The notes beneath the pieces were generated by a model. It had not been told where the DNA came from, made no database searches, and saw only the letters and a program-made list of their open reading frames with translations. The position numbers and the translations under genes are program-made. Below are positions 2,673 through 23,402 of a DNA stretch of 64,000 nucleotides, piece after piece. This DNA comes from an uncultured Actinomycetes bacterium (GTDB taxonomy: Bacteria > Actinomycetota > Thermoleophilia > Solirubrobacterales > 70-9): NCBI GenBank assembly GCA_963783345.1, contig CAWANE010000020.1, positions 36,236-100,235 on the forward strand, given 5' to 3'. The first letter of the stretch is position 1, and each line of letters opens with the position of its first letter.

Positions 2673-2888
2673 TCAAGCGCGGCGGCGAACCGCGCGATGA
2701 AGCCTTCCGGCGAGCCACAGGCACGCACCGGCGATGAGCAGGATGGCGGCGCTGGCGTTGCCCGTGATGGCGAGGTCCGCCGCGCCCATGAAGACGAGGA
2801 ACGCGCCACCGACCCGCAGCACGAGCCCGCCGAAGAACCAGAAGCCCAGGAGGGCGAGGATGAAGATGCCGATCGCCGACGCGGTCAC
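2673..2888 (-). CDS. Small membrane protein (2-3 TM helices) translationally coupled to the integrase
   Basis: 71-aa hydrophobic ORF (IGIFILALLGFWFFGGLVL..., AAILLIAGACLWLAG). Its GTG overlaps the integrase stop (GTGA). Confidence 0.55.
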   Translation of the reverse strand: MTASAIGIFILALLGFWFFGGLVLRVGGAFLVFMGAADLAITGNASAAILLIAGACLWLAGRLHRAVRRRA

Positions 2889-4180: not shown

Positions 4181-4280
4181 TGCGATCACCTCCCGACTCG
4201 GGGCGCCGGAGGGAGGCAGGCGCGATCGCCAAGCGACGGCAGCGACTCGCGCGCCTCTAGGCTGGAAATCGCGCCGAAGC

Positions 4281-4754
4281 TCACCGCGCCGGCGCCGGGC
4301 CGGGGGCGTTGGAGCGCCGCCCGGCCGCTCTTGCTTGCCCGACGACACTAGCTCTGCGTCGGCGCGAAAGCGAGTCGCGTCGGGCATCGCTGCCAATCGG
4401 CGCCAATCGGCGCCCAGAGGGAGGCTCGGCGATTCCGAGGGCGGCGATCCGGGCGCTCACCTCGCTCGGGCTGAAGCGCAGCCGCGGGCGCTCGCCGTCG
4501 CCAAGCCGAACGGCGCCGAGCTCCTCTGCGTGTGCGTAGACCCAGGAGCGATCGACGCCACACCGCTTCGCGACTTCCGCCGCGGTGATCAACTGGCCCA
4601 CGGGCGGGTCAGGAGCATCCAGCTCCAGCAACTCGACGATCCGCCGGGCCAGGGCGTCAATCGTCTCGTCGCTGAGGTGAACCACTTCGGCGTAGTGCGG
4701 GTGCTGGCGGCCTTCCCCCCGGCGCGACCGACAATCCCCGGTGCGATCGTTCAT
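4281..4754 (-). CDS. Excisionase-like / MerR-superfamily HTH DNA-binding protein
   Basis: The HTH ITAAEVAKRCGVDRSWVYAHAEELGAVRLG lies directly upstream of the integrase. ATG 4754 overlaps the stop of the upstream gene (ATGA). The C-terminal tail is low-complexity. Confidence 0.65.
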   Translation of the reverse strand: MNDRTGDCRSRRGEGRQHPHYAEVVHLSDETIDALARRIVELLELDAPDPPVGQLITAAEVAKRCGVDRSWVYAHAEELGAVRLGDGERPRLRFSPSEVSARIAALGIAEPPSGRRLAPIGSDARRDSLSRRRRASVVGQARAAGRRSNAPGPAPAR

Positions 4755-5698
4755 CGCTCGCGCCTCCCCTCGTCGCCGGGTCCGCAACCGAGCCAGTCGA
4801 CCGGGAGATCGGGCTCGCGGACGTCGCGGAAGACCGCCGCAAAGGGGCCCTCGGCCTGCAGGTCCTCGAGCAGGCAGACCGAGATCCTCACCCCGCGGGC
4901 TGCGGCGAAGGTGGGGTTCCCGCAGAGCAGGGCGCTGGCGCTGGCGCGCCGCCGCTCGAGCGCGGCGCGCGAGCCTCCGGCGAGGACGCAGTGGACTCGC
5001 GGGAAGCGCGGGTAGTGCTGCTTCCAGATCGGCTCCCTGTCGCCTCCCTTCAGGCGGTGGAGCTCCGCGTAGCGCGCGAGCTCGGCGGCGAGACGGTCGA
5101 CCGAGAGGGTCGCCCTGTCGAGCTCGAGGAAGCGCTGCTCCAGGGCGAGCCTCCCTTCCTCCTCGCGCAGGTAGGTCAGAACCGCGTCGGCGAAGAGGGT
5201 GCGGCGCCGGCGGCCGCGGCCACGCGAGAGGGGGTGAGCGACCTCGTGGCGCCAGGAGAGCGGCCCGAACTCATCACCCCGATCGCGCGCCGCGCGCAGG
5301 AAGGCGATGCCGGTGTCGTTGACGGCGAGGGTGTGGGCGCGGAGCTGCCCGGCGACCTCGGCTGCCAACAGCGGCCTCGGGGCCTCCTCCAAGGCATGGG
5401 CCTCCTGCGCCAGCCTCACCCCGCGCTCGGTCGCGAACCAGAGCCGCTGTCCGGAATGCGGCGGGCGGTTGAAGGCGACGAGCTCGGCCTCCCTCAGTCG
5501 ACCCAGCACCTGCTGCGCCCAGCGACTGCGGCTCTCGGGGAGGTGGATCTCCCTGACCTGCCCGGTGCTCAGCACGCGGTGCTGGATCAAGGAGGCGAGG
5601 ATCTCCACGGCCGTCTCGGGCAGGCCGCTGGCGGGCCGGACGCTCGTCTCAGCTGCCAACGCTCTCACCTCCAAGCCAGTAGGGACCCTCGTCCTCAT
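4751..5698 (-). CDS. Replication-relaxation family protein
   Basis: The N-terminal winged-helix pattern VEILASLIQHRVLSTGQVREIHLP...AQQVLGRLREAELVAF is typical of this actinobacterial plasmid/ICE family, assigned from memory. The start is uncertain (5698, or GTG 5668). Confidence 0.55.
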   Translation of the reverse strand: MRTRVPTGLEVRALAAETSVRPASGLPETAVEILASLIQHRVLSTGQVREIHLPESRSRWAQQVLGRLREAELVAFNRPPHSGQRLWFATERGVRLAQEAHALEEAPRPLLAAEVAGQLRAHTLAVNDTGIAFLRAARDRGDEFGPLSWRHEVAHPLSRGRGRRRRTLFADAVLTYLREEEGRLALEQRFLELDRATLSVDRLAAELARYAELHRLKGGDREPIWKQHYPRFPRVHCVLAGGSRAALERRRASASALLCGNPTFAAARGVRISVCLLEDLQAEGPFAAVFRDVREPDLPVDWLGCGPGDEGRRER

Positions 5699-8255: not shown

Positions 8256-8500
8256 CAGTGAGCGACCTCGACGTGGTGCAGAGAAGTCGGCAAAACCGCG
8301 GCTGCGCAAAGCCGCTGACGGTGCCGAGCTTGTGGGATTGAAGCCCGACCGCGAGCGGTCGGGTAAGCGGTTTGTTGTGCGTTGGGATCTGCGTGGGAAT
8401 GGACGATCTGAGTTAGGTTCAAATGGAGCCTCCTGTAGCAATGGAAGATGTTCATTGCTTCCGGACTAGCTCCGTGCAGCGGAGAAGTCAAGTCGGGAGA

Positions 8501-8537
8501 AATCCGATTCCCAATCCCCGGCAATCCCCACTAATCC
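8501..8537 (+). repeat. Four phased AATCC(C/G) repeats (iteron-like) in the 563-bp intergenic region
   Basis: AATCC occurs at 8501, 8513, 8523 and 8533, a spacing of 12/10/10 nt or about one helical turn. CAATCCCC occurs twice. Confidence 0.45.
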
Positions 8538-8634
8538 GCGGGTAATACACGTGGGGGGGTAGCGCGAATTTCTGCGTTTTCTGGGCGGATTCGACGGCGC
8601 CCCAAGAGCTCGTCCAAGCCCGCCGACAACCGGA

Positions 8635-8669
8635 TCACGCGAGCGCCGACTCCGTGGGCACTCGCGTGA
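8635..8669. promoter_or_regulatory. 9-bp perfect inverted repeat, candidate oriT or operator
   Basis: TCACGCGAG (8635-8643) and CTCGCGTGA (8661-8669) are separated by 17 nt. An 8-bp hairpin CCCGACCG/CGGTCGGG lies near 8345-8365 in the same spacer. Confidence 0.35.
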
Positions 8670-8818
8670 GATTCCTGTCGCCCGGTATCTAGCCAAGTCT
8701 CCGCTGGGGGAGGGGAGAATCCCGCCTCGCCGCGACTCAAAGAGATGTGCACCGACAGGAGAGGCTCCCTGGGATCGAGACCGACCAACGATCCGCCGGC
8801 ACCCATAAAGTCGTTGGG

Positions 8819-10465
8819 ATGACCGCGACGCTGACCGAGCGCGAAGCCAAGAAGGCGCTCGGCGCCTTCTACACCCCGCCCGAGATGGCGGCCGCGCTCG
8901 TCGACTGGGCGGTGCGCTCGTCGACTGATCGGGTCTTCGATCCCAGCTTCGGCGGCTCCGTCTTCCTCGAAGCAGCACTGCGGCGGCTCGAGCAGCTGGG
9001 GGCAAGTCCCGCGGCTACCCAGGCACAGGTCTTCGGCGCCGACGTCGATGAGGGCGCGTTCCTCCGGACAGCCCCAGGGACCGGGGAGGCCACGCTCTAT
9101 CGCGGCGACTTCTTCGAGATGCGACCCGGCGAGGAGGTTCCGCGGGTCGAGGCGGTTGTCGGCAACCCCCCCTACATTCGCTATCAAGACTTCAATGGCA
9201 CCGCCGAGGCCGCTCATCGAATCGCCGCCGAGGCCGGCGTTCCGCTTACTCGCCTCGCTTCCTCGTGGGCGCCATTCTTGATCCACGCGACCAGCTTCGT
9301 CAGCGACGGTGGTCGGATGGCGCAGGTTCTGCCGGCGGAGCTGATCCATGCCCAGTACGCGGCCGGGATAACCCGCTTCCTCGCGGCGAACTTCAAGCGC
9401 GTCGCGATTGCCCTCTTTGACCAACGAGTCTTCCCCGGTGCCCTCGAGGAGGTCGTCCTCCTCTTCGCCGAGGAGCGGACCGGGGACGCACAGGGGTCCG
9501 TCGACCTCGTCTCGTTCGACTCCCTCGCTGAGCTTGACGCCTCGCAGCTCTTCCCTGCCACCGCTTCCGCTGATTCGCAGACCCCCGGGAAGCTTTTGGG
9601 CAGGCTCCTGCCCGCCGCCACCCGAGCCCTCCTCGCCGAGCTCTCCGAAAGATCCGAGACCTCGGAACTCAGTGACGTCGCAGCGGTCGACATCGGTGCG
9701 GTCACCGGAGCCAACGACTTCTTCCTGCTCACCCGGACCGAGGCGAAGGGCATGCCCCAGCGAACCGTCCGACCAGCCGTCAGCAAGGCAGCGCAGATCC
9801 CGGGGGCACGGATCTCCGCTGACGATCATCGCCAGCTTCTGGACGAGGGCCGAAAGGGCCTCCTGTTCGCACTCGAAGCGGGCGTTGAGCCAAGGAGTTC
9901 AGCGGTGCAACGCCGCATTGCTCTGGGCGAGGAGACGGGGATCCCCGACGGCTACAAATGTCGCGTTCGGGACCCCTGGTGGTCGGTACCGATCCCAAGG
10001 CGCGGCGTCGCCGATCTCCTCCTGACCTACTTCGCAAGCGAGCACCCGCGCCTTGTTCTCAACGAGGCCGACGTCCTTCAGACGAACACGATCCACGGCG
10101 TCTACCTCAAGGCACCCCTCGACGCCGCCGCTCTCACCGTCGCCTTCTACAACAGCCTCACGCTCCTTAGCGCGGAGCTCGTCGGGCGCAGCTACGGCGG
10201 CGGCGTCTTGAAGCTCGAGCCAACCGAGGCCGGGTCGTTGATCCTGCCACCTGTGCCCGAGACCCTGGGGGGATTGCTGGACGATGTCGATGCGCTGATC
10301 CGCCGCCGCGATCTCGAGGCCGCCCTCGAACTCGTCGACCCGATCGTCCTGGGCGAGGGTTTGGGGCTCTCGGACGAGGAGATCCGCGCGCTTCGCGCGG
10401 GCGGTGCGCAGCTCCGCGCCAGGCGCCGGTCGCGCGGCGCCCGGCCGGCGCCTGTCCAGAACTAG
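8819..10465 (+). CDS. N6-adenine DNA methyltransferase (gamma class, Eco57I/TaqI-like)
   Basis: FYTPPE, motif I VFDPSFGGSVFL and motif IV VVGNPPYIRY. ATG 8819 is chosen. Confidence 0.85.
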   Translation: MTATLTEREAKKALGAFYTPPEMAAALVDWAVRSSTDRVFDPSFGGSVFLEAALRRLEQLGASPAATQAQVFGADVDEGAFLRTAPGTGEATLYRGDFFEMRPGEEVPRVEAVVGNPPYIRYQDFNGTAEAAHRIAAEAGVPLTRLASSWAPFLIHATSFVSDGGRMAQVLPAELIHAQYAAGITRFLAANFKRVAIALFDQRVFPGALEEVVLLFAEERTGDAQGSVDLVSFDSLAELDASQLFPATASADSQTPGKLLGRLLPAATRALLAELSERSETSELSDVAAVDIGAVTGANDFFLLTRTEAKGMPQRTVRPAVSKAAQIPGARISADDHRQLLDEGRKGLLFALEAGVEPRSSAVQRRIALGEETGIPDGYKCRVRDPWWSVPIPRRGVADLLLTYFASEHPRLVLNEADVLQTNTIHGVYLKAPLDAAALTVAFYNSLTLLSAELVGRSYGGGVLKLEPTEAGSLILPPVPETLGGLLDDVDALIRRRDLEAALELVDPIVLGEGLGLSDEEIRALRAGGAQLRARRRSRGARPAPVQN

Positions 10466-11247
10466 GGCAGGTTCCGCAGCGCAGTGCAGACCTGAGAGAG
10501 GACCCTGTCGAGCTCGATGTTCGCTGCCCTTACGTCCTTGGCAACGTAGGCGTCCTTGCGCTCGTTCCAGCCGTAGCAGTACACGCCGCAGGCGTCGAAC
10601 CAGACGCTCGCCACGTGGCCATAGTCGATCGTGCGCCTCAGGTCGACTTCGTCGATCGTGCGCACCGCGAGGAACATGTAGCAGAGGGGCGGAGCTCGCC
10701 TGATCCACGTGCCGAGGTCGGAGGTCGGACCCCCTCCTTCGCCAGCCAGTCGCGCCTGCTCTGCCTTGATGTCGATGTTCTTGAAGCTCGCCTCCTTGAT
10801 CCGCTTCTCAAGGTCGGCGGAGCCGGGTCGTCCTTCAGGGTTCTTCTGCCTCTCGTTGCCCGGGTGCTTGGGGAGTCCGGTCGCCTTCGTCTCAATCACG
10901 AGATCGACGGCGCCGCTTGCCGGGTAGGCGACGTCGAGCTTGTGCTTCTTGAAGCTGAGCCCGGGAACTCCCGGCCTGCTGTGCAGCTCCTTGCCCGAGC
11001 AGTTCGCGAGCAGCAACGCCAGCATGTCGTTGAAGAAATCGCCCTTGCCGTTTCGCATGTCGCCGGCGTCAGCGATGCCATCGGCTACGAGTTCATCGAA
11101 TTCCCGCATTGCCCTCAGGTAGATCTCCTCGACCTGCAGGAAGGTCCGTGCGCCCATCTCACGCATCTCGACCAGGGCAGCCTGTAGAGGCGCCCGTCCG
11201 GGCTTGCCGATCTTCTCGGCACTCAGCGTCTGCGTCTTCCGGGCCAC
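10462..11247 (-). CDS. Putative type II restriction endonuclease (PD-ExK) partner of the methyltransferase
   Basis: Convergent with the methyltransferase, with the two stop codons interlocked in CTAG (10462-10465). Candidate catalytic motif is KLDVAYP...VDLVIETK. The start is uncertain. Confidence 0.55.
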   Translation of the reverse strand: MARKTQTLSAEKIGKPGRAPLQAALVEMREMGARTFLQVEEIYLRAMREFDELVADGIADAGDMRNGKGDFFNDMLALLLANCSGKELHSRPGVPGLSFKKHKLDVAYPASGAVDLVIETKATGLPKHPGNERQKNPEGRPGSADLEKRIKEASFKNIDIKAEQARLAGEGGGPTSDLGTWIRRAPPLCYMFLAVRTIDEVDLRRTIDYGHVASVWFDACGVYCYGWNERKDAYVAKDVRAANIELDRVLSQVCTALRNLP

Positions 11248-11378
11248 TCCAGCCCTGGACCCTAACGTCCCCCGAATGACTTCAGGTCGATCACTGGCGG
11301 CGACTGAACGCGGTCCTGCTGTAACCAGTCCAGTTTTCGCGCGCCCTCCGCGAGGCCACGGCGATACGCTAGGCGCAC

Positions 11379-11942
11379 ATGACGGCCAACAGATACTTGC
11401 GGGGTCTGGTCGCCGGGATCGTGTTGCTCGGCCTGTTGGGGGCGACTGCGGGCACGGGCGATGCCAGTTCGGAATTGCACATAGCGATCGCTGGCGTCAA
11501 GCCGAAGATGAGCCGGGGTCAGGTGCGGCACAAGCTTGGGAAGCCGACCAAGATCACGACCTGGTTCGAAGTGCACGGGCGTGCGCTGGAGCGCGAATGG
11601 CACTACGCGTCGCGGCTGATCGTGTACTTCGAAATCGGACGGGGAGGGCATGTGCGCCGGGTCGCCCACGTGCGCACCTATAGCCCCCGGGACCGTCTCC
11701 CAAACGGGATCCACGTCGGCGTTCGCGAAGCGGCCTTGCACCGCAAGCTCGGCGGTAGTCTCGTCTGCGCGAAGTACTCTGGGTGGCCGGAAACTCCCTT
11801 CCCCAGCGGCTACCTGTGCACGTGGTTCCCCGTGAAGGCAAACGCGCCGTGCGGAGACAATCTCAAGTTCTACATGCGGCACAAGCACGGACGAGTCGTG
11901 TACATGGACCTCGAGAGGGACACCTACGAGGCCTGTGGCTGA
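11379..11942 (+). CDS. Secreted hypothetical protein
   Basis: Signal-peptide-like N-terminus LRGLVAGIVLLGLLGATAGTGDA. Several Cys residues lie in the C-terminal part. Confidence 0.6.
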   Translation: MTANRYLRGLVAGIVLLGLLGATAGTGDASSELHIAIAGVKPKMSRGQVRHKLGKPTKITTWFEVHGRALEREWHYASRLIVYFEIGRGGHVRRVAHVRTYSPRDRLPNGIHVGVREAALHRKLGGSLVCAKYSGWPETPFPSGYLCTWFPVKANAPCGDNLKFYMRHKHGRVVYMDLERDTYEACG

Positions 11943-11966
11943 CGAGGCCCAGGTACACGTGCTCGC

Positions 11967-12779
11967 TCAGGATTCGCTGGCGTTCTCGAGAATCGGCTCA
12001 GTGTTGCGATAGATCAGCTCCCGGGCGTGGGCGGCAAGCTCCAGCACCGCGGTCGGGCCGCCACCGAAGCGGATCCGGTCACCGACCCGGAGGCGCCGTT
12101 GCCCCACGACCTCGTCGCCGTTCACAGAGGTGCCGTTGCCCGTCCCGAGATCGACGAGCCACGCCTCCATGCCGCGGCAGCGGAGGCGCGCGTGCTCACG
12201 CGAGACCTCGGGCGACTCCAGCCGGATGTCGGAGTCGATGCCCCGTCCGACGGTCATCTCCCCGTCGAGCGCGGTCCGCTCGCCGGCGACGTTGAGTTCG
12301 AGCAACGGCCCCTCAGTCCGCTCGGGGGTGCGCATCCTGGTTCGCTCCGAAACGGCTGCGACGACGCCTACCGTCCCGTGTGAGACCCGCGCGTCGGCCT
12401 TGACCCGAACCCGCGGCTCGCCCAGTATTCGGAAGGGCAGGTCGCCGTCGCGGTGGCCGTTCTTCACAGCGGCTTGGAGCAACGCCGCCACGCCAGCGCA
12501 GAATTCGTCGGTCAGGGCGCCGATCGCCCGGTAGTCCTGGGGGTGCAGGAGGACGAGGATGTCGTTGGGCAAGTGTCGGGCCGAGATCATCACCGACGCC
12601 CGGTCGCACACGAGGTTCGCCGCTGCGCGCTGGAGATCGGCCATCGTCTGCAGGCCGAGCGCAGCGCGCCAGCGCGCGACGGCGTTGCTCGTCGCGAGAC
12701 GGGATTCGGTGCCGAGGCGGCGCACCATCGCATAGACGGCAGCGCCAATGAGCAACAGTACAAGTAGGGAGGGGAGCAT
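11967..12779 (-). CDS. FHA-domain protein with N-terminal TM helix (FhaA-like layout)
   Basis: C-terminal FHA signature is TVGRGIDSDIRLESPEVSREHARL...WLVDLGTGNGTSVNG. N-terminus is LPSLLVLLLIGAAVYAMV. Confidence 0.8.
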   Translation of the reverse strand: MLPSLLVLLLIGAAVYAMVRRLGTESRLATSNAVARWRAALGLQTMADLQRAAANLVCDRASVMISARHLPNDILVLLHPQDYRAIGALTDEFCAGVAALLQAAVKNGHRDGDLPFRILGEPRVRVKADARVSHGTVGVVAAVSERTRMRTPERTEGPLLELNVAGERTALDGEMTVGRGIDSDIRLESPEVSREHARLRCRGMEAWLVDLGTGNGTSVNGDEVVGQRRLRVGDRIRFGGGPTAVLELAAHARELIYRNTEPILENASES

Positions 12780-12846
12780 CGATACGCCTCCTTGTCGAGT
12801 TTTCGCGTTCGCCGATGTTCCCCGTGCCCTCGCCGCATTTCATCCC

Positions 12847-12876
12847 CTCCTGAGGGGAAGTCCTTCCCCTCAGGAG
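12847..12876 (-). terminator. 13-bp perfect hairpin overlapping the stop of the FHA-HTH gene
   Basis: CTCCTGAGGGGAA-GTCC-TTCCCCTCAGGAG. Confidence 0.55.
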
Positions 12877-13454
12877 TCGCGCGTCGGCGTCGCCCGCCAC
12901 CGCGAGTTCGCAAGCGCCAATCGGCGCTGGCTCTGCGTGAGTTCAGGTGGGATCTCGAGCCGCTCGAGTAGCAGCGAGATATGGTCGCTGACCGTTTCCG
13001 GCTTGATGTGGAGCCTGTCCGCGATGTCCTGGTTCGAAGGCAGCACGCCGTCTCGGGCTTCGTGCAGGATCGTCAACACCTGATAGGGACGCGCGCCCAC
13101 GTAGACGGTCGGTCCCATCGGCGGCGTCTTCTGGCTGGGGGTCGCGCTGAACCGCAACCTGGTGGCGCCGAGGATCAGGACATCCCCGTGGTGCAGCTCC
13201 TTGGAGGTTCCTTCGAGACGGCGAGGCCGCCCCCCCTCCGGGCAAACCTTGGTGCCGTTGCTCGAGCTGTCGCTGAGGACCCAGCGGCCGCCCTGTGCGT
13301 CCAGCCTGGCGTGGGCTGCCGAGACGTGGACGTCGTCATCGATTATAAGGTCGTTCCCGACCCCACTGCCGATGGTGACTGGAGAGTGGTCAGGGTCGAG
13401 ACCAAAGGCCAGACGCTTCTGAGACACCCAGACGAGGCGAGCGTGGCCGACCAT
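12870..13454 (-). CDS. FHA domain fused to a C-terminal HTH (LuxR / sigma region-4-like)
   Basis: FHA: TIGSGVGNDLIIDDDVHVSAAHARL...WVLSDSSSNGTKV. HTH: LPSNQDIADRLHIKPETVSDHISLLLERL. Confidence 0.75.
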   Translation of the reverse strand: MVGHARLVWVSQKRLAFGLDPDHSPVTIGSGVGNDLIIDDDVHVSAAHARLDAQGGRWVLSDSSSNGTKVCPEGGRPRRLEGTSKELHHGDVLILGATRLRFSATPSQKTPPMGPTVYVGARPYQVLTILHEARDGVLPSNQDIADRLHIKPETVSDHISLLLERLEIPPELTQSQRRLALANSRWRATPTRDS

Positions 13455-13532
13455 CTCTCATATTCTCCGATCCATGCGCGCTCCGAATCGAACCGCCCTC
13501 GTAGCGTCGTGCCATCCGTCCGGGGAGGGGCC

Positions 13533-15191
13533 GTGCTAGAGGTAGGGCAGAAGATCGGTCAAGACGATAACGGATGCGAGAAGTACGAAGTTGACGAACT
13601 CTACGGCGAAGGTGGGCACGCCGTCGTCTTCCGCGGTCACCGCGTATCAACCGGCGACGAAGAGGTCGCGATCAAGTCGATCCGCCCGAAGTACAGCCAC
13701 GACGGCGCCTTCGTGAAGCGCTTCAGGCGCGAGCAGGAACAGATGAAGGAGCATCGCGACCACCCGAATCTGTCGCCCGCCGAGGACTGGGAACGCCTCT
13801 CGGATGGGACGCTCTGGCTGGCGATGAGGTGGATCGATGGCGACAGCCTCGAGGCGCTGGTCGAGAGCGAAGGGCCGCTGCGGCCGATCGAGGCCGCAGA
13901 GCTGATTGCCCAGGCCGCCAACGGTCTCGCGGCGGTTCACCACAAGCCTCCCTACGTGGTACATCGCGACCTACACCCCGGCAACCTTATGGTCGAGGAC
14001 GGCAGGGCGATCATCATCGACTTCGGCCTGGCCAAGCGCTACGACCACACGAGTGGTAGCCCCATCGGCCCCCAGCCAGGGCCCTACAACGCCCCCGAGC
14101 TCGTCCTCGGCAGGGAGCTGACGCCGAAGTCCGATGTCTACAGCCTTGGCTTGGATCTAGCCTTCGCCCTCACCGGCGTCCCGCCCAGCGACGGGCGACC
14201 GCAGTTCCCGCCCAACATCGCGGTGCCGCGATCTCTGCGACGCCTCATTCGGAATGCAACCTCCAGCGAGCCCGGGGACCGGCCCGACGCCGCGACCTTT
14301 GCCGAAGAGCTGCACGAGGCTGCGCAGGAGCTCCGGGCCGGCCGGAGGCGGCGAGCAGTCGCGGCTGGCTGGCTGGCGGCCGCCTGCCTGGTGGCTGCGG
14401 TCGCCACCTTCCTCGTCGCCCAGGACCTAAGTGGGTCAGCCGCGAATGTGCACGACGTTTCGGTCGCCGGCCTCCAGCTCACGGTTCCGGCGAGCTGGAA
14501 GCAGACGACCAGCTCTGCCCGCGCCCATGCACTTGGCCTCGACACCGCCTTGCGCGCCCCTGCTGCCACAGTGCTGGTCGGCACGGTCGCGCCCGCGGAG
14601 CTACCGCTGGCGCGGGGCGAGGGGGGCGCGGTTTCGGTCCGGCTCCCGGTCGGACCGGCTCTGCGCTCGGACCAAGACGTCCCGCTCGGCGCGGATCGCG
14701 GATACTTCCTCCGCGTTGGCGACCAAGTCGTAGCCGTCCTTTGCATCGCGAAGCCGAGCGTTGACGCTCTCGCGGCACGCCGAACCTGCGACCGACTGGG
14801 GTCCACGATCCGCACCGACCAGTCCGTCTCGGCGATCTCCAGCCCCAGCCAGGCGCTGCGCAGGCAGGTCAGCGCGGCGCTGGCGGGCTACGCAGCGGCC
14901 AGCCAGCGCGGGACGCGGCGGGTCAAGGCTGCACGCACCCAGGCGGCTGCCCGGCGGGCAGCCGCGGACGCGGCCGATGAAGCAACCGCCGCCGCGAACC
15001 GGGTTCGGGCCCCCTCCCTGCGCCGCCTCCGCATCGCCCTTCTCGATGCCGCCGCAGCCTGGCGCTCGGCGGCCCACGCGGCGGCCCACGGCCACCACCG
15101 CGCCTTCGTTCACGCCGGCGCTCGTGTCGCCGCAGCGGACCAAACCATCGCCCGTGCCCGGGCCGGCCTGCGCGCCCTCGGCTTTCGCTGA
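13533..15191 (+). CDS. Hanks-type Ser/Thr protein kinase with TM helix and extracytoplasmic domain
   Basis: GEGGHAVVF, VAIKSI, HRDLHPGNLMV, DFGLAK and NAPEL, then TM WLAAACLVAAVATFLVA. The first ~184 codons of ORF 12981..15191 are antisense to the FHA gene and were trimmed. GTG 13533 is chosen and the start is approximate. Confidence 0.8.
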   Translation: MLEVGQKIGQDDNGCEKYEVDELYGEGGHAVVFRGHRVSTGDEEVAIKSIRPKYSHDGAFVKRFRREQEQMKEHRDHPNLSPAEDWERLSDGTLWLAMRWIDGDSLEALVESEGPLRPIEAAELIAQAANGLAAVHHKPPYVVHRDLHPGNLMVEDGRAIIIDFGLAKRYDHTSGSPIGPQPGPYNAPELVLGRELTPKSDVYSLGLDLAFALTGVPPSDGRPQFPPNIAVPRSLRRLIRNATSSEPGDRPDAATFAEELHEAAQELRAGRRRRAVAAGWLAAACLVAAVATFLVAQDLSGSAANVHDVSVAGLQLTVPASWKQTTSSARAHALGLDTALRAPAATVLVGTVAPAELPLARGEGGAVSVRLPVGPALRSDQDVPLGADRGYFLRVGDQVVAVLCIAKPSVDALAARRTCDRLGSTIRTDQSVSAISSPSQALRRQVSAALAGYAAASQRGTRRVKAARTQAAARRAAADAADEATAAANRVRAPSLRRLRIALLDAAAAWRSAAHAAAHGHHRAFVHAGARVAAADQTIARARAGLRALGFR

Positions 15192-16360: not shown

Positions 16361-16535
16361 CAGAGCAGACTGGCGGCGCCAGCAGAACAGAGGGTTTCAA
16401 CCCCGAATCGGCGTTCAAGCGGGAGGCCCCGACCCGCATCCCGGAAGCGCGAGCGGGGCGGCGAGACAGAGATCGAGCTTTCTCACAGGGCGCCACCGCC
16501 CAACCGAAAGTGGGCCAACGGCTCGGGAGCAGCTT

Positions 16536-18095
16536 CTAGAGACCGATGGACATGCTCCTGATCTGGCCAGTGAGCTGCTCAAGGTACTCCTGGTGCGCGG
16601 CCAGAAAGTCGGCAATCGGGTGGGCGCCGGTCTCCTCAAGCCGAGGGCCGCGAACGAGCCGGTCGTCCTCGGCGCGGAGACTGCTCATCGCCGGCTCCTC
16701 CGCCCCCGTGATCTCCGTTGCCGAGCAACGCAGTCCATGCCAGACGAGGAGGTCGTCCTCGACCTGCCACACCTCGTTGACGTTCCTCATCAGAAAGTAG
16801 TTGAAAAGGTCGCCCTCGAAGAAGCGGTCGAGCATCTCCTGTGGATCTTCCCGCACGGTCTCCCCGTCCCAGGTGATAAAGCCCACGATGCCCTCGGCCT
16901 CCCCCGCGAGGTCCGGTTCGGGGATTACCTGGAGTGAGGGGAGGTAGGCGGTCGACTCCGTCGCATGGGCCTTGAAGAGCCCCATCACGAGGTCGACCGG
17001 GTTGAACAGCGAGATAGCGACTGCCGGGGCCTGCTTCTCCTCGAGCTCGTCGAGGTAAAGGCCAACAATTCTCGCCCAGCTCGAGTTTCCGAGTAGGCAG
17101 CGGCCGAGGTCCTCCCGCACCCGTCTCCAGACCGGCGCGACGCGGGGGGAGGCGACCTGCTGGAAGATGGAGGAAAATCCGCCAACGTCACTCCTAATCA
17201 TCGCTAGAAGGTCATCGTCAGTTCGAAGCGCCGAAGAGAGGTGCTCGCCATAGCGGCGGATTTGCGTCGGCGGCCAATCGCTCTCCGTGGAACGAAACTT
17301 GTCGGGGCCAGTCGTCTCTGCGGTCATCCCGGCTGGGTGGGAGATATGGGAGGCCACCTCGCCGATCAAGGTTTCCTCCAGATAGACCGGGTTTTCCTCG
17401 ATGTCAAATTCCTCCGGCTCTAGCCCAAGGCTCTCGATCACCTCGAGGCGGCGGCTGGGCTCGACCATCGCCACGATGAAGCAATCGGCGAACGGGTAGA
17501 TCACGCGCTCACTTGCCCCGACGTAGTCCTGCTCGATCAACAGGTAGTCGGTGATGCCTACCTCCTCCGCAGCACGCACCCTCTCGTCGCGATGAGCCTC
17601 CCTTTCCTCCGCGGTCGTGTACAGGTAGACGAGGCCGTTTGGGCATAGCTCCAGCGAGCCGGCATCCTCGATCGCACTGACCGGCTCGAGCCCCGTGAGG
17701 ACCCCCTCATCATCCACCTCGATCTCGTAGCCGTCAACGTGGTAGGGAGCGCTCGCCGTGAACTCCGAGAAGGGGACCAGCAGCTCGTGCCAGTCGGTTG
17801 ACAAGACGACGCAGCGCACGGCGTCCTCGGCGACTCCATGGTTACTGCGAAGCAGCGCCGTGTACTTGAAGATCTCGTGGATCGCCTGGCGCGCGGTGGC
17901 GTCGCTGCGCTTGATCTCGATCACGACAAGGAGGCCGAATCGGTCCCTTGCGAGGATGTCGATGAACCCCTTGCCGCCGATCGGGTTCGGGAGTTTGTAC
18001 TCGGTCTCGATCAGCTCGAGACCGTCTTCTAACTTGCCGAGGTCCTCGGCCAGGGCGTCCCTAATCAGATTCTCCGGCGGCCGGGGCTGCGTGAT
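16536..18095 (-). CDS. NucS/DUF4263(Shedu)-type PD-(D/E)xK nuclease domain fused to a ~450-aa unrecognised C-terminal region; start codon unresolved
   Basis: The ORF track starts at GTG 17924 (VIEIKR). The same frame stays open for 60 more codons to a TAA at 18105-18107. Those codons encode ...ENLIRDALAEDLGKLEDGLELIETEYKLPNPIGGKGFIDILARDRFGLLVVIEIKRSDATARQAIHEIFKY, which is the D...E-x-K...Y core. No ATG/GTG/TTG lies in that extension, so 18095 (ATC) is only a nominal start. Confidence 0.6.
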   Translation of the reverse strand: MTQPRPPENLIRDALAEDLGKLEDGLELIETEYKLPNPIGGKGFIDILARDRFGLLVVIEIKRSDATARQAIHEIFKYTALLRSNHGVAEDAVRCVVLSTDWHELLVPFSEFTASAPYHVDGYEIEVDDEGVLTGLEPVSAIEDAGSLELCPNGLVYLYTTAEEREAHRDERVRAAEEVGITDYLLIEQDYVGASERVIYPFADCFIVAMVEPSRRLEVIESLGLEPEEFDIEENPVYLEETLIGEVASHISHPAGMTAETTGPDKFRSTESDWPPTQIRRYGEHLSSALRTDDDLLAMIRSDVGGFSSIFQQVASPRVAPVWRRVREDLGRCLLGNSSWARIVGLYLDELEEKQAPAVAISLFNPVDLVMGLFKAHATESTAYLPSLQVIPEPDLAGEAEGIVGFITWDGETVREDPQEMLDRFFEGDLFNYFLMRNVNEVWQVEDDLLVWHGLRCSATEITGAEEPAMSSLRAEDDRLVRGPRLEETGAHPIADFLAAHQEYLEQLTGQIRSMSIGL

Positions 18096-18348
18096 GCGGT
18101 CAGCTTAGTTACCCGGCGAAGCTCAGTGTGCTTCCTGTGCCCCTCCTTCTCTCGCCTGCGCGAGGCGGAAAACGTCCGCCAGGTGACGAGGAGAGTGCCC
18201 GCGTCTGCGCAAGCGCCGGAAGGCATGGGCGTCGTGAGCGGGCGGGGCGGGCAGCGCAACCAGCACCAAGAGGTAGCTTGGCCTTCAGCCGCTAGCTCTC
18301 CAGCCGATCAAGGACGCTGTCCTTTGGCGCTGCCACCGCAACTCCAAA

Positions 18349-18999
18349 CTACGCGGCGGCAGCCTCCGACGCCAACTTGTCGACCGCCGGTAGCGCGCGG
18401 AGCATCGCCAGCACGGCCCAGACAATCACTTCTGCGACCGGCCTGTCAACCGAGCGAGCAACATCTTCAAGGGACAAGCGATGGGAGAAGATATGGGTCA
18501 GAACGACCTTCTCCACGTGTGGCAGGTTGGGAAGAATCTCGATCAGGTACACAGCGGCTGGGCCAAGCGAATCCAGCCGCGTGTTGCCGTATTCGTAGAG
18601 CCTCGTCAACTGATCGCAAAGCTCATCAACGGTCACTTCCGCAAAGTCGGCCAACTCGTCCCGGCCAGCGTCATGCCCGAGGTGCTCCGTCGCAGAGTCG
18701 AGCATCTCGGCCCACCTCCCGAACTGGACGGCTGCGTCATACCTTGGCCTGGCCTCATTGAGAAGCCGGTAAAGAGTGGGGCGGCTGTAGCCCGTTAGGC
18801 GCGAGATCTCCGCGATTGAGAGCCCGGTGTCAGCGGCACCCGGCAGCAATTCGATGATTCGCTTCGTCGCCATGTCTGCGGACTGAAGATGCTGCTGCCG
18901 GTCATTCGACGCCGCGTTTAGCTCATGACGGTAGAGGGCGAGCTGGGCGTCGCGGCCCTGACGGCCCCGCCGGTCGCGTTCGTCAAAGAGAGTGCTCAT
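18349..18999 (-). CDS. HTH DNA-binding protein (resolvase-type HTH), co-directional with the nuclease gene
   Basis: LSIAEISRLTGYSRPTLYRLL, plus a second HTH-like segment LSLEDVARSVDRPVAEVIVW. Confidence 0.65.
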   Translation of the reverse strand: MSTLFDERDRRGRQGRDAQLALYRHELNAASNDRQQHLQSADMATKRIIELLPGAADTGLSIAEISRLTGYSRPTLYRLLNEARPRYDAAVQFGRWAEMLDSATEHLGHDAGRDELADFAEVTVDELCDQLTRLYEYGNTRLDSLGPAAVYLIEILPNLPHVEKVVLTHIFSHRLSLEDVARSVDRPVAEVIVWAVLAMLRALPAVDKLASEAAAA

Positions 19000-19132
19000 A
19001 GAACGAGATTATCATTACTTTACATTTTATGTCCACCAAGGCACCGAGGGCGCGCCCGAGATTGACGGGAGGCTGATGGGCAACTAGCTTGCCCTGCCGG
19101 AAGGCGTTTCTCTGGGTGAGGGAGCGAATCGG
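19000..19132. promoter_or_regulatory. AT-rich divergent promoter region between the HTH gene and the helicase gene
   Basis: AGAACGAGATTATCATTACTTTACATTTTATGTCC is conspicuously AT-rich against the G+C-rich background. Confidence 0.45.
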
Positions 19133-21034
19133 ATGGCTGATTTCCGTCCGTCGAGCGAGCAGACTGCGATTCTTGGGCACGATTCGAGTACGCATGCATG
19201 CGTACTTGCTGGACCTGGAACCGGAAAGAGCGCGACGTTGGTGGCGTGGCTGGACGGACTGCTCGGGCGGGATGATCCTCCCAAGGTCAGACTCCTAACC
19301 TTTACGCGCGCGGCCACCGCGGAGCTTGCGGGAAAGGTACTCGACCACGACACCCTCGCCGCAGAGAAGCCGAGCACCGTTCACTCGTTTGCGATTTCGG
19401 TCCTCATGCAGAATGAAGGAGCCGGAGACTTCCCAGAGCCGCTCCGCATGGCCGACGATTGGGAGAGGGATCAAATCGTTGAACAATCGCTCGCCCGCCG
19501 CGCCAAAGTCAACAAGAGGAGAATCCGACACCTCATTGCGGAGATGGCGGCAGCATGGGAGTCGCTGAACGAGGAGGAGGACCCGAAGGTCGATCCGAAG
19601 GAGCGCGCGCGGTTCCTGGGCGTTTGGAACGAGCATCGGACGATCTTCGGGTACACGCTGCTCGCCGAGCTGCCCTACGCACTCCTCACGGCGCTTGAAA
19701 ACCATCCGGATCTTCGCGGCCTCGACTTCGATCTGCTGATCGTTGACGAGTACCAGGACCTCAACGCCTGCGACCTCGCGCTGCTAAAGCAGATTGCCGA
19801 TCGCGGATGCACGGTGGTCGGAGCCGGCGACGACGACCAGTCGATCTACTCGTTCCGGAAAGCCGATCCCGCCGGAATTCGCCGGTTCGAGGATGACTAT
19901 CCGGAGGCCATCACCTATCCGCTTTCTGTGTCCCGACGGTGCGGACGGAGCATTCTCGATTGGGCCTCGTACGTCATCGAGGGGGATATCGATCGACCGG
20001 ATAAGCGTCGGCTTAGCTGCCCGGAGGGAGCCGGCGATGGCGAGGTTTCCCTACTGGCCTTCGCCGGCCAGAAATCGGAAGCGACGGGCATCGCTCAACT
20101 GACCAAGCAACTCATCGACCGGGACGGGCTGGAAGCCAAAGACATTCTGATCCTCCTACGCGGCGACTACAACAGCCAGTTCAGCGGAGCGATCAAGGCG
20201 GCCCTGGAGAAGGAGGGGATTCCCTACTCCGATCCCGAGGCTCTCAAACAGCTGCTCGCAAGCCAGGCCAACCGCTGGGTGCTGGAGATCATGCGCCTGG
20301 TTGCCAATCCGAGTGACTCGATTGCGTGGGCCTCCCTGTTGCATCTCACCAGTGGCATCAGCGACTCCTTCATAGATGGGATCTACGACGAGGCTAAGAA
20401 GAAGGGGGTCTCCTTCAGTGCCGCGCTAATGCGAATGCGAGACACGGCTTTCCCTGAGCTTCCCGCCCCGTCGGCGAGCAAGGCTGAGACGTTGATCGCT
20501 GCTATAGAGGAGTGGTTAAGCTCGATCGACGCGCCTGACGAGACTCCGGATGGCGGGTGGGGGCAGTGGATCATCGAATCGGTCGGCAACTCGATCGTGC
20601 CGATTCCAAGTGATGAGCTGATTGAACTGCTGGGCGAGCTGGATGGTCTCATGGAGCGATCGCAAGACCTCGGCAGATACCTTGGCCAGATCACTCCCCT
20701 CGGCAAGGACATTGCCACCGCTAAAGCTGAGGGTGTGCGGGTGATGTCGATGGCCAGTTCGAAGGGCCTCACGGTCGGGGCGACCATCGTCGCTGCCGCC
20801 GAGAACGACATCATCCCGCGGCCCGAAGCCCCAAACGACGAGGAGCGGCGACTCCTCTACGTAGCGATGACCCGAGCTACGGACCACCTCTTTGTCACCT
20901 GGTCGCGAATGCGCCGAGGACCTACCGCCCGCGCGGGCCGTGGCCGAGCCAACGCGAAACGCCGTCACTCGCAATTCCTTGATGGGGGGCCGGTGCGATC
21001 CCGGGACGGTAACGCCTACCTTGCCGGACGGTAG
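19133..21034 (+). CDS. UvrD/Rep/PcrA-type SF1 DNA helicase
   Basis: Walker A AGPGTGKSAT, motif II LIVDEYQDLN, GDDDQSIYSFR, and C-terminal YVAMTRATDHLFV. Confidence 0.9.
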   Translation: MADFRPSSEQTAILGHDSSTHACVLAGPGTGKSATLVAWLDGLLGRDDPPKVRLLTFTRAATAELAGKVLDHDTLAAEKPSTVHSFAISVLMQNEGAGDFPEPLRMADDWERDQIVEQSLARRAKVNKRRIRHLIAEMAAAWESLNEEEDPKVDPKERARFLGVWNEHRTIFGYTLLAELPYALLTALENHPDLRGLDFDLLIVDEYQDLNACDLALLKQIADRGCTVVGAGDDDQSIYSFRKADPAGIRRFEDDYPEAITYPLSVSRRCGRSILDWASYVIEGDIDRPDKRRLSCPEGAGDGEVSLLAFAGQKSEATGIAQLTKQLIDRDGLEAKDILILLRGDYNSQFSGAIKAALEKEGIPYSDPEALKQLLASQANRWVLEIMRLVANPSDSIAWASLLHLTSGISDSFIDGIYDEAKKKGVSFSAALMRMRDTAFPELPAPSASKAETLIAAIEEWLSSIDAPDETPDGGWGQWIIESVGNSIVPIPSDELIELLGELDGLMERSQDLGRYLGQITPLGKDIATAKAEGVRVMSMASSKGLTVGATIVAAAENDIIPRPEAPNDEERRLLYVAMTRATDHLFVTWSRMRRGPTARAGRGRANAKRRHSQFLDGGPVRSRDGNAYLAGR

Positions 21035-21128
21035 CTGATCCACACCGCGACCAAGGTCTTCGACACAAGGCCGTCAACCTAGGTCTGCGTATCCGGCCAA
21101 GCCGGAGGTGAGTCTCGAGGCTCGACGC

Positions 21129-22025
21129 CTAATCCTCCGAGGAGCCGTCGACATATCCGCGGCGGCGGCATTGCCGCAGCAGGTCGTCGACGTATCCATG
21201 GGCATCGGCCGCACCCGCGTCTAGGTCCCCACCCGGCTCGCCGTCGAACTCAGCGGCCCGGAGGGGGCCGTGGCTGTCGGACGAAGCGAAATCCGAACCG
21301 AGTCTGCCCAGGGCCTCAGCGACGATCCCCAGGTCGGTCTCTGCATGGCGGCCGAGCCGCTCGACTATGTCGGCGATACCACTCGGCCACCGTCGCAGGA
21401 CGTAGATGAGGTCGAAGGCGTCCTTCGGCTCGCCGCGATCGTGGAACGCGAGCGCCTTCAAGACGACAAAGGTGGCGGGTCCACAGACGGGGATCACCCT
21501 CTTCACTCGCTCGCCTTTCAAGGTGTGCCCGTCGAGGAGAACGTCCTCGCGCTCGTTCTGGGCGAGCTGCAGGCCCGGCGTGATGATGGCGCTCAGATCT
21601 CCCTCCAAGGGCTGCATGCGTCGGTCGTTATCGATCCCGGGGAGCGGCGGTAGGAGGAAGTCGATGGTGACCTTCAACGAGCCCAGTTTCCAGCGCTGTG
21701 GGGTCGGGTTGCCTTTGCTGTTTTTGTCCGGTCCGAAACCCTCCTGGCGCAGTCGCTCGCCGAGCTCGGCGTACTGCTCGTCGTCGAGCAAGGCGATCGC
21801 GAGGGCGACATCCAGGTCGTTGGTCCCCGGATGGCCCGCTTCGGTCTCAGGGTCGGGGCCGATGTCGTGGTCGATGAGGAGGCTCGGCACAAGTCCGCCG
21901 ACGATGCAGATCCGATCCATCAGCGCGCCCAGCGTGATCGCCACCGTCAGGAGCGCAGCTTCGACCTGTTCGGTCTCCTCCCGGCTGTAGCCGCTGCGGT
22001 GCCTGGGCTTCCGAGTCTCAGCCAT
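21129..22025 (-). CDS. abiEii: Nucleotidyltransferase, AbiEii/AbiGii-type toxin
   Basis: NTase motif GHPGTNDLDVALA. About 298 aa, and overlaps the upstream AbiEi-like gene by 8 nt. Confidence 0.7.
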   Translation of the reverse strand: MAETRKPRHRSGYSREETEQVEAALLTVAITLGALMDRICIVGGLVPSLLIDHDIGPDPETEAGHPGTNDLDVALAIALLDDEQYAELGERLRQEGFGPDKNSKGNPTPQRWKLGSLKVTIDFLLPPLPGIDNDRRMQPLEGDLSAIITPGLQLAQNEREDVLLDGHTLKGERVKRVIPVCGPATFVVLKALAFHDRGEPKDAFDLIYVLRRWPSGIADIVERLGRHAETDLGIVAEALGRLGSDFASSDSHGPLRAAEFDGEPGGDLDAGAADAHGYVDDLLRQCRRRGYVDGSSED

Positions 22026-23067
22026 GCCAGGCCATCTGTTCGGCGCGCAGTTGGTCGGCTGCCTCTCTCGAACGTTCGGGCAGGTTCAGCAAGTCGAGGT
22101 AGACCTGGACAGGGGCGACACATGGGAGGCCGTCATACTCCTCCCCGCCGGCGAGGACACCGTCGTCGTCGGGCCCCAGGAGCTGGACGTTCGCCCCTTT
22201 GTCGCCGATTCGGATCTCGGTCTTTTCAGCGGCGGCACGGGGGTCGCCCTCCACGTAGACGCTGGTTAGGCGGAAGCGGGCGAAGTGCGACATCGCCCAG
22301 GCGGCCGGCAGCCCCGTGAACGCATGGGTGATATCCGCGTCGGCGAGGCGATCGTCGAGCTCGCGGGCGATCTCGATCCCGCCGCCGCTCAGATGCCCGA
22401 GGACGGCCTGGTGCCGGTCGAAGCGGTAGTCCTCCGCCCAGGCGTCGAGCAGCAGATCAGGGTTCCGCGGCCGCAACTCCCGATTGCGACGCTCGAGCAG
22501 AGCCTCGTCGCCAAGCCTCCGGACGATCCGTGAGACGTTCCCGTCGTCTAAGCCCGTGGTCTCGGCCAGGTCCTTCTGGCGCCACCACCGGTTTGGGTCG
22601 AGAAGGAGGGTCCTCGTGATGCGGGCGCTCTTCGGGGCAAAAGGAGAGGACGGCCTGCCAGCCGCGCGAAGCCGGTCGGGCTGTCCCTTGACCCAGACAT
22701 GGAGGCCCTCATCGCGGATGTGGGCGTTGCCAGACAGGTCCAACCAGTTCAGTCGCAGTTGGTCCGCCGTTTCCGCCCCCGCCTTCGACATGAAGGGGAC
22801 GACGAGGATCGGAATGAAGTCTTCGTCGACCAGCTGGCCAAGCTGCGCTGCCGCGCGCTCGACCTGACCGGGGCGACTTGAGCTCTTGACCTCGATGGCC
22901 CACCGCCTGCCTCGGGTGTCGTCAGCCAGCAAATCGATCCCGCGGTCGTGCGGCCCGGCGTCGGGGAAGACATCGAGACCTTCCTCGTCTAGAAGCTCTG
23001 CGAGCAGGGATGGCAAAAGCCGGAGGGCTTCGCGCTCGATCGTTCTTGCATCGTTCTGCACCTGCAT
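22018..23067 (-). CDS. abiEi: AbiEi-like antitoxin/regulator with an extra N-terminal PD-(D/E)xK-like domain
   Basis: N-terminus RGIDLLADDTRGRRWAIEVKSS...AAAQLGQL, central wHTH KDLAETTGLDDGNVSRIVRRLGDEALL, and a C-terminal region of the length expected for AbiEi. Confidence 0.6.
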   Translation of the reverse strand: MQVQNDARTIEREALRLLPSLLAELLDEEGLDVFPDAGPHDRGIDLLADDTRGRRWAIEVKSSSRPGQVERAAAQLGQLVDEDFIPILVVPFMSKAGAETADQLRLNWLDLSGNAHIRDEGLHVWVKGQPDRLRAAGRPSSPFAPKSARITRTLLLDPNRWWRQKDLAETTGLDDGNVSRIVRRLGDEALLERRNRELRPRNPDLLLDAWAEDYRFDRHQAVLGHLSGGGIEIARELDDRLADADITHAFTGLPAAWAMSHFARFRLTSVYVEGDPRAAAEKTEIRIGDKGANVQLLGPDDDGVLAGGEEYDGLPCVAPVQVYLDLLNLPERSREAADQLRAEQMAWHG

Positions 23068-23177: not shown

Positions 23178-23402
23178 GGAAGCGGACGAGGACGCTGGAC
23201 CGGAGAGCTTTGGGCACTCGAGGCCAGGAGTGCCCGAAACGCCCTAAATCGCCGTCAATCGGCTCCTATCCGCACTGCTTTCGACTCTCTGGCGCCTTGC
23301 AGAACTCCCTGCACATCGGAATGTTTTTCGCCAGGAATGCCGTCCAGGCGCGCGACATCGCACCCAGGAGGTCGGCGGTTCGAATCCGCCTAGTCCGCCT
23401 CC
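23178..23402 (+). ncRNA. tRNA-like element: canonical T-arm plus a long closing stem; not a canonical tRNA or tmRNA
   Basis: GGCGG-TTCGAAT-CCGCC (23374-23390) is preceded by AGGTC. The 3' TAGTCCGCCTCC (23391-23402) can pair 10/12 with GGAAGCGGACGA (23178-23189). I could not fold a D-arm or an anticodon arm. Confidence 0.3.
23210..23304 (+). repeat. Right copy of the diverged ~95-nt repeat (partner at 3-80)
   Basis: Same collinear blocks as listed for 3-80, lying inside the putative tRNA-like element. Confidence 0.4.

Follow-up and report, generated by a model that had tools for sequence, protein, structure and literature searches.

Whether genes that lie side by side in a defense island belong to one system is the question raised by a segment of a 64,000-nucleotide stretch of DNA from an uncultured Actinomycetes bacterium (GenBank assembly GCA_963783345.1, contig CAWANE010000020.1, positions 36,236 to 100,235), which is referred to here, at its full length, as the window. 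At positions 16536-21034 a gene for a PD-(D/E)xK nuclease is preceded, in the same direction, by a gene for a helix-turn-helix (HTH) protein, and across a short spacer a gene for a superfamily 1 (SF1) UvrD-type helicase is transcribed divergently. The original prediction, made from the sequence alone, took the three genes for a new defense cassette. Comparison with related loci indicates that the nuclease, the HTH protein and the helicase very probably do not constitute one three-gene system. The account we favor, with some reserve, is that independent cargo modules make up the region as a mosaic, carried by an element that has integrated at an attachment (att) site derived from a tRNA, and that the nuclease is a single-protein anti-invader enzyme.

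The co-occurrence of the three genes was analyzed in loci collected with a family alignment of the nuclease, which was compared with one genome each of 185,579 species. The scan gave 143 confirmed stretches, of which 80 distinct loci were kept, from Streptomyces, Nocardia, Nostoc, Myxococcota, Verrucomicrobiota, Planctomycetota, Flavobacterium, Clostridia and others; these relatives represent at least 8 phyla and share 25-38% identity with the window nuclease. When the window helicase and HTH protein were searched by tblastn against 10 kb on either side of the nuclease in these 80 loci, no HTH homologue was found, and the only UvrD-like traces were two marginal ones, neither of the window helicase family. 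The search was sensitive to distant UvrD helicases, as it picked up GajB (29% identity over 172 amino acids, aa) in a locus with a much closer nuclease relative, L081. A helicase of the window family and an HTH homologue were likewise not found beside the nuclease in the close relatives L081, L082/L083 and L084 (60-89% identity). Conversely, neither nuclease nor HTH gene was present in the 14 loci of close helicase relatives. In none of 84 loci with the nuclease, 14 with a close helicase relative and 5 with the HTH gene did the trio recur. The original prediction had itself named a lack of co-occurrence in other genomes as grounds for abandoning the three-gene cassette, and lack of co-occurrence is what was found.

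The surroundings of the nuclease were equally inconstant. Clustering of the open reading frames (ORFs) within 6 kb revealed no neighbor family in more than 10 of the 80 loci, the top one reflecting a syntenic Streptomyces subclade, and a Pfam search of 268 flanking proteins gave at most three members for any family. No methyltransferase (MTase) family recurs beside family members in either analysis; the Eco57I-like MTase of the window lies 6 kb from the nuclease and has its own restriction endonuclease (REase)-like partner. In a survey of neighbors with PADLOC and Pfam, counted per family rather than per protein, the genes found included DISARM DrmA/B, pPIWI-RE, a pAgo-associated REase, OLD-type AAA_15/21, nSTAND1, Gabija, Abi_C, recombinases and insertion sequence (IS) elements, so that placement beside mobile or defense genes is frequent, not universal. 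The close relatives are equally varied. In L081 (89% identical nuclease) IS110 lies on one side and the nuclease is directly upstream of a Gabija pair (9802-13246), which is complete (GajA of 581 aa with OLD-TOPRIM; GajB of 568 aa) and is followed by Abi_C, Peptidase_M78, DDE_3 and an integrase. In L082 and L083 (76%) the nuclease stands among ordinary genes, and in L084 (60%) it adjoins DUF6119 and an integrase.

The limits of the sequence shared with other genomes, determined by blastn, bear directly on the supposed cassette. The sole recurrence of any of its gene pairs is in locus L129, where an HTH gene (93% identical) directly precedes a nuclease remnant, with no helicase. L129 shares window positions 16479-19055 at ~87-95% nucleotide identity; its nuclease (8663-9941) carries a 380-bp frameshifting internal deletion, the intergenic region is 137 bp shorter and the HTH gene is intact. 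A second locus, L085, shares positions 19060-21041, comprising the helicase and 73 bp upstream of it, and L081 shares 16536-18135 only. The blocks 16479-19055 and 19060-21041 therefore recur separately and meet at 19055/19060, within the "shared" spacer, and a junction inside the spacer places the helicase outside the nuclease unit. As far as the sequences go, HTH and nuclease genes form a unit in near-identical relatives only. The possibility of a mobile mini-cassette was considered and rejected, as no repeats were found to bound 16479-19055.

Taken by itself, the helicase is intact, with Walker A, DEYQD and other motifs, and the description of a divergent 633-aa SF1 UvrD-type enzyme was correct. 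It matches the PADLOC GajB profile PDLC00117 over its full length with an E-value of 2.2e-40, and the NCBIfam PcrA, Rep and UvrD profiles at E 4e-44 to 4e-37; as it scores as well against the latter, the GajB match is not specific. More than 3000 clusters match it at E<=1e-30, the best 120 listed being mostly 632-640 aa in length with at least 56% identity. The helicase is thus a member of a large stand-alone family of ~632-640 aa that is not linked to the nuclease. Its 14 close loci present variable settings, with TIR or PIN genes, DUF4747, housekeeping genes or unidentified genes. One of these, L086 (1-2820, 6001-8896), bears a 77%-identical helicase on an element with Replic_Relax and a protein resembling TraG and type IV secretion system (T4SS) coupling proteins, followed by a DUF4747 gene. 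The helicase therefore rides on two Replic_Relax-type elements, in the window and in L086, and the latter gives a hint of a role in element replication or transfer rather than defense. It may accordingly assist such elements, as an accessory helicase, in rolling-circle replication or in transfer, or it may be a solitary defense helicase. At another locus, L087, a 60%-identical helicase relative is convergent with a gene (7926-9125) for a 399-aa protein in which a PD-(D/E)xK-like motif, DILLG...YQVKRVK, was recognized by eye; its sequence shows no relationship to that of the window nuclease.

The HTH protein was found, as described earlier, to have 216 aa and to be encoded co-directionally upstream of the nuclease, at a distance of 253 bp. 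It is not, however, resolvase-type: no resolvase-type Pfam match was obtained, and its Pfam matches are generic (IclR, HTH_23 and sigma-70 r4 types). Only 6 clusters of relatives were detected, and these relatives precede or face other genes. In locus L126 (6001-7505, 9118-12525) an 83%-identical HTH gene is followed by a gene with an FRG domain and no nuclease, in the company of Replic_Relax, a PIN gene and a serine recombinase; the HTH protein may thus be a portable regulator that stands ahead of different cargo. In this lineage it is probably a local transcription regulator. The spacer that separates its gene from the helicase measures 133 bp, as stated, but is not strikingly AT-rich throughout: its G+C content is 56% overall and falls to 36% in the first 45 nucleotides only. 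A promoter-like site accounts for this AT-rich part, and since the site ends 8 nucleotides before the HTH ATG, the HTH mRNA is probably leaderless.

The nuclease itself proved to be the most distinctive component. The view that an N-terminal PD-(D/E)xK core is fused to a large unrecognized region was borne out by several approaches. Pfam NucS_C matches residues 8-99 (E 3.5e-8, 33.9 bits versus a cut-off of 24), with no Pfam match past residue 99, and the NCBIfam NucS equivalogs align with the nuclease half only (NF003270, 38 bits versus 216; NF002876, 25 versus 252). The AlphaFold2 (AF2) model that had been proposed is confident, with a predicted local distance difference test (pLDDT) score of 86.5 for the full protein and 85.2 for the C-terminal region alone, and Foldseek retrieved known folds for the N-terminal domain alone: EndoMS/NucS (5gke) at probability 1.0, with a root-mean-square deviation of 3.3 A over 122 columns, together with the nuclease domains of Card1 and AdnA and viral PD-(D/E)xK proteins. 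D46, E60 and K62 are invariant among 23 diverse members, and little or no variation is seen in an STDWHEL strand and at a set of Trp, Gly and Arg positions of the C-terminal region. The triad, the AF2 secondary structure, which fits the alpha-beta-beta-beta-alpha-beta core of such enzymes, Pfam and Foldseek agree that the enzyme belongs to the PD-(D/E)xK superfamily and is of NucS_C type, and the window copy has a complete active site and is under purifying selection.

The earlier description of some 450 aa without a recognizable motif stood as regards the lack of library matches, but the extent is ~400 aa (residues 118-519). At a threshold as loose as E<=1, Pfam gave no match for this region among 15 diverse members, no PDB match was obtained by sequence profile, and Foldseek gave no significant match with the full model (against PDB and BFVD) or with a model of the C-terminal region alone, for which the best match (E 0.025) was to generic ferredoxin-like proteins. 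A profile of the C-terminal region alone found 770 matches among 1.84 billion representative proteins, 393 of them at E<=1e-30, so that the family amounts to about 770 clusters at 50% identity. The full-length matches measure 505-550 aa, and in every one of them the region begins near residue 114-130. The profile recovered the nuclease fusion alone and no other layout; the family therefore has one fixed architecture, and the region was rejected as a shuffled domain. Members occur in Actinomycetota, Pseudomonadota, Myxococcota, Cyanobacteria, Verrucomicrobiota, Planctomycetota, Bacteroidota and Clostridia, and the family is rare and has spread over phyla by horizontal transfer. A few members lie on Rhizobium and Pseudoalteromonas megaplasmids, where they are annotated as NucS-domain proteins. 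No full-length relative was found in IMG/VR or among GenBank phages, a point that we rate as neutral; a phage origin of the locus was rejected on the same result, the phage matches of the helicase being remote only. A separate observation concerns the C-termini: in about 30 of 148 full-length members the chain terminates with x-S-x-G-L/I-COOH (for example SIGL, SQGL or STGL; in the window at 16539-16553), a feature that is not universal.

The beginning of the nuclease gene required separate consideration. The codon at 18095 is ATC, and no in-frame ATG, GTG or TTG is present between the upstream stop codon and GTG 17924 (V58), which lies downstream of the catalytic D46. With no canonical start upstream of D46, the true start is non-canonical or uncertain. 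The public protein for the locus (P0001), of 462 aa, takes GTG 17924 as its start and lacks the catalytic Asp, a consequence of the missing canonical start codon. In distant relatives an ATG occurs ~3 codons ahead of a conserved E-x-x-I-R-D, and the position of this ancestral ATG is CGG in the window and TCG in L081 (89% identical). The start-less state is common to L081 and P0003 to P0005, at 11-13% protein divergence (87-89% identical). Between the window copy and L081 the ratio of nonsynonymous to synonymous substitution rates (dN/dS) is 0.17 over the whole gene; across the 57 codons ahead of the annotated GTG it is 0.08, which argues that this stretch is still under protein-level selection and still translated; for the first 14 codons it is 0.66, from six changes only. 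Among the candidate starts (Table 1), translation from CTG 18053 (TTG in L081; 505 aa) is plausible, as is translation from ATC 18095; CTG 18068 or ATT 18065 may also serve.

The genes under study lie on a mobile island, as had been proposed. The G+C content of the window is ~70%, and that of third codon positions (GC3) is 0.78-0.90 across bases 1 to ~23,400 versus 0.92-0.98 in the genes beyond. Together with the integrase, the Replic_Relax protein and a tRNA 3' fragment, this shift identifies the nuclease, HTH and helicase genes as mobile-island cargo. No whole tRNA was found in the window by ARAGORN or Rfam. The 37-bp fragment is 100% identical (blastn) in L081 (6287-6323), where it is collinear with the nuclease relative, and no homology was detected between the genes of the window and of L081 beyond it. 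The fragment is likely to be an att-type right end of the integrated element, and the elements of the window and L081 are probably related integrative elements bearing different cargo.

Table 1. Features of the window discussed in the text (positions are those of the 64,000-nucleotide stretch).
Feature	Position	Strand	Remarks
Tyrosine integrase	2885-4396	-	Element backbone gene
Replic_Relax protein	4751-5698	-	Element backbone gene
930-aa ORF	5649-8441		Beside Replic_Relax
Restriction-modification (R-M) pair	8747-11247		Eco57I-like MTase and weak REase_II match
FHA-domain protein and Ser/Thr kinase	11967-15191		270 aa (divergent) and 736 aa; inside island
Nuclease gene	16536-18095	-	Open frame, encodes GKGFIDILARD...LLVVIEIKRSD...; upstream stop 18105-18107, open from 18104
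Conserved C-terminal region, aa 118-519 (~400 aa)	16539-17744	-	Several predicted alpha/beta (ferredoxin-like) sub-domains
N-terminal PD-(D/E)xK (NucS_C-type) domain, aa 1-117	17745-18095	-	Pfam, NCBIfam, invariant columns, Foldseek
Invariant catalytic residues	D46 17958-17960; E60 17916-17918; K62 17910-17912	-	23 diverse members
Candidate nuclease starts	ATC 18095; CTG 18068; ATT 18065; CTG 18053	-	519 aa from ATC 18095; 505 aa from CTG 18053 (TTG in L081)
216-aa HTH protein	18349-18999	-	HTH at aa 55-82 (18754-18837), then ~130-aa unassigned C-terminal region
Spacer, 133 bp	19000-19132		Between divergent HTH and helicase genes
Promoter-like site TGGACA-16-GATAAT	19008-19035	-	Ends 8 nucleotides before HTH ATG
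Junction of two independently recurring blocks	19055-19060	.	HTH and nuclease block 16479-19055, helicase block 19060-21041; blastn
633-aa SF1A UvrD/PcrA-like helicase	19133-21034	+	Walker A, DEYQD, other motifs; intact
AbiEii-like gene	21129-22025	-	Weak profile match, 22.0 bits versus cut-off 22.5
AbiEi-like gene, overlapping AbiEii-like gene	22018-23067	-	AbiEi_2, 23.5 bits versus cut-off 21
tRNA 3' fragment, 37 bp	23357-23393	+	T-arm/T-loop GGTTCGAATCC

The remaining genes of the island fall into further groups. The 930-aa ORF has no Pfam match at E<=1e-3 and, judged by its position, may serve the element in transfer or as a translocase. The nuclease and its neighbors had been placed between an R-M pair and an AbiE pair. 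An R-M pair does precede them and an AbiE-like pair follows, but four genes intervene after the former (the FHA protein, the kinase and two ORFs without assigned function), and the AbiE matches are weak. The AbiE-like pair, identified through these weak profile matches alone, is a module apart from nuclease and helicase. The 736-aa kinase has strong PADLOC matches (PD-T4-6, E 2e-43; mad6, E 1e-39), and it may represent a separate kinase-based defense module. A MADS-like system, suggested in PADLOC by matches of the kinase to mad6, the MTase to mad2 and the HTH protein to mad1, was dismissed as a set of generic domain matches: the PD-T4-6 and MTase_II profiles score much better, and the match of the HTH protein to mad1 covers 24 residues at E 3e-4.

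Under the account favored here, then, the island would carry three modules in this segment: the HTH regulator with a stand-alone nuclease (16479-19055), a UvrD/PcrA-like helicase that is an orphan, unrelated to the first module and preceded by an upstream region of its own (19060-21041), and the AbiE-like pair. The nuclease would need no partner protein and would cut invading DNA as an endonuclease, probably in oligomeric form. The task of its C-terminal region would be to sense the target, to keep the enzyme auto-inhibited or to mediate assembly, in line with other one-protein nucleases that keep sensor and cutter in separate domains, such as Shedu, END nucleases, type IV restriction enzymes and the PADLOC candidate PDC-S11. 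As no cognate methyltransferase is conserved beside the nuclease, self and non-self would be told apart by a feature or state of the DNA, not by host methylation. In this lineage the HTH protein would repress or tune the operon from the AT-rich promoter. The components of this account differ in strength. That the window enzyme is a defense nuclease is an evenly balanced proposition. More tentatively, the whole family may be an undescribed single-protein immune nuclease, in which the C-terminal region is a new sensor or regulatory module of ferredoxin-like units without a solved relative.

Several observations weigh against this account. The stable synteny in the Streptomyces subclade fits a chromosomal, non-defense role equally well, and many neighbors of family members are ordinary metabolic genes. 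The C-terminal region shows no recognizable sensor fold, so that any role assigned to it is guesswork. The window copy, without a canonical start upstream of D46, is possibly poorly expressed or inactive. Finally, the linkage of HTH and nuclease was seen in one near-identical relative and could reflect plain shared ancestry.

Among the alternatives, the one that survives best, albeit as an unlikely one, is that the family serves DNA repair or recombination, in a housekeeping function like that of NucS/EndoMS and perhaps in association with the clamp. The catalytic domain is closest to NucS, the Streptomyces synteny and the metabolic neighbors would be in keeping with it, and the tail x-S-x-G-L of about 30 members bears a possible resemblance to QLVLGL, the tail by which E. 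coli Pol IV binds the clamp. The N-terminal domain of NucS is missing, however, the scores stay far below the NucS equivalog cut-offs (38 versus 216 bits), and a housekeeping function is at odds with 143 stretches in 185,579 species, scattered over many phyla, with the placement on integrative elements beside Gabija, DISARM, pPIWI and IS elements, and with the pseudogenized close copy in L129.

Slightly less probable is a two-gene, addiction- or toxin-antitoxin-like stabilizer of the island, confined to this lineage, in which the HTH protein curbs a toxic nuclease. The travel of both genes as one block in L129, the promoter upstream of the HTH gene, the homologous HTH gene ahead of FRG-domain cargo on another Replic_Relax element, and the decay in L129 of the nuclease next to an intact HTH gene could all be understood in this way, yet almost all family members have no HTH partner and the two genes are 253 bp apart in the window. 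About as improbable is the possibility that the window nuclease is a decaying, non-expressed gene that has lost its start codon. The lack of ATG, GTG or TTG upstream of D46, the CGG at the ancestral ATG position, the 462-aa truncation in the public annotation and a relative with a frameshifting deletion are what this would predict; the start-less state shared with L081 and P0003 to P0005 across 11-13% protein divergence, and the dN/dS values of 0.17 overall and 0.08 in the 57 codons upstream of the GTG, are not. Least credible by far is that HTH protein, nuclease and helicase form one new nuclease-plus-helicase defense system, divergent from a shared spacer: despite their adjacency in a defense-type island, the full-length GajB match of the helicase (E 2e-40) and the Gabija pair adjoining the L081 nuclease, it is contradicted by the absence of co-occurrence in the 84 nuclease, 14 close helicase and 5 HTH loci, by HTH and nuclease without helicase in L129, by the junction inside the spacer, and by a helicase that is as close to PcrA/UvrD as to GajB and only 29% identical to L081 GajB over 172 aa.

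The mosaic of independent modules carries a lesson that is mainly negative: adjacency within a defense island is no evidence of a system, and, as the block boundaries show, independently exchanged modules can meet inside an apparently shared spacer. The analysis also isolates a rare family in which a NucS-type cutter is combined with a confidently predicted but unrecognized region of 400 residues; if the family proves to be an immune nuclease, this region would be a new sensing or regulatory domain and a single-gene system would be added to those known. An annotation error is flagged as well, in the form of the public 462-aa protein without its catalytic Asp.

In comparison with known systems, the distinction drawn in the original prediction from Gabija, Hachiman and Shedu held in the profile searches, with no GajA and an N-terminal nuclease. 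The helicase resembles Gabija in its full-length match to the GajB profile, but Gabija has an OLD/TOPRIM partner, GajA, whereas the window helicase family occurs alone. Using the actinobacterial GajA of L081, tblastn found no GajA in the 64-kb window at E<=1; no Pfam match to AAA_15, AAA_21 or OLD-TOPRIM was seen among the window neighbors, and no GajA lies beside the close helicase relatives, so that a Gabija variant was ruled out. Hachiman (HamA with DUF1837 and the superfamily 2, SF2, helicase HamB) gave no profile matches, and the window helicase is of SF1 UvrD type. A type II R-M system was rejected as well, as no cognate methyltransferase is conserved beside the nuclease.

The catalytic fold and motifs are shared with NucS/EndoMS (Pfam NucS_C; Foldseek 5gke). 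In contrast to NucS/EndoMS, a two-domain protein of about 220-250 aa, the window family lacks the N-terminal DNA-binding domain, carries 400 additional aa and is encoded by an accessory gene that is rare and rides on mobile elements; membership was rejected, as 38 bits compares with an equivalog cut-off of 216 and only the nuclease half aligns. Shedu (SduA, DUF4263) is a one-protein defense nuclease of the PD-(D/E)xK class, in which sensing is left to a domain apart from the NucS-related catalytic one. Its nuclease is C-terminal and its N-terminal domain varies, whereas the order is reversed and the architecture fixed in the window family, and no Shedu/DUF4263 match was obtained in PADLOC or Pfam. 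The PADLOC candidate PDC-S11 is also a single polypeptide with a NucS-like N-terminal PD-(D/E)xK domain followed by an uncharacterized C-terminal part, and its profiles are weakly matched, in the nuclease domain only, by 21 of 23 family members. The match spans ~25-93 of 358 positions, however, at E 1e-5 to 3.5e-9 (22 bits for the window protein); PDC-S11 proteins have ~350-380 aa, versus 505-535 aa here, and the C-terminal regions have no detectable similarity. With no match over most of the model, membership in PDC-S11 was rejected, and the nuclease family is not modelled in PADLOC.

A parallel in layout is offered by END-Mag, in which an N-terminal NucS-like PD-DExK cutter is combined with an inactivated EndoIII sensor and which restricts phages with hypermodified DNA (PMC12191111). 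END-Mag acts alone and places its NucS-like cutter before a C-terminal non-catalytic part, the same order as in the window nuclease. The sensor of END nucleases is a helix-hairpin-helix (HhH) domain of EndoIII/Ogg1 type that has lost its activity, whereas the window region is alpha/beta with ferredoxin-like units, and no HhH, EndoIII or Ogg1 match was obtained for it in Pfam (E<=1) or Foldseek. By analogy, then, the layout of the window nuclease resembles that of the one-protein nucleases in which a cutter is joined to a sensor.

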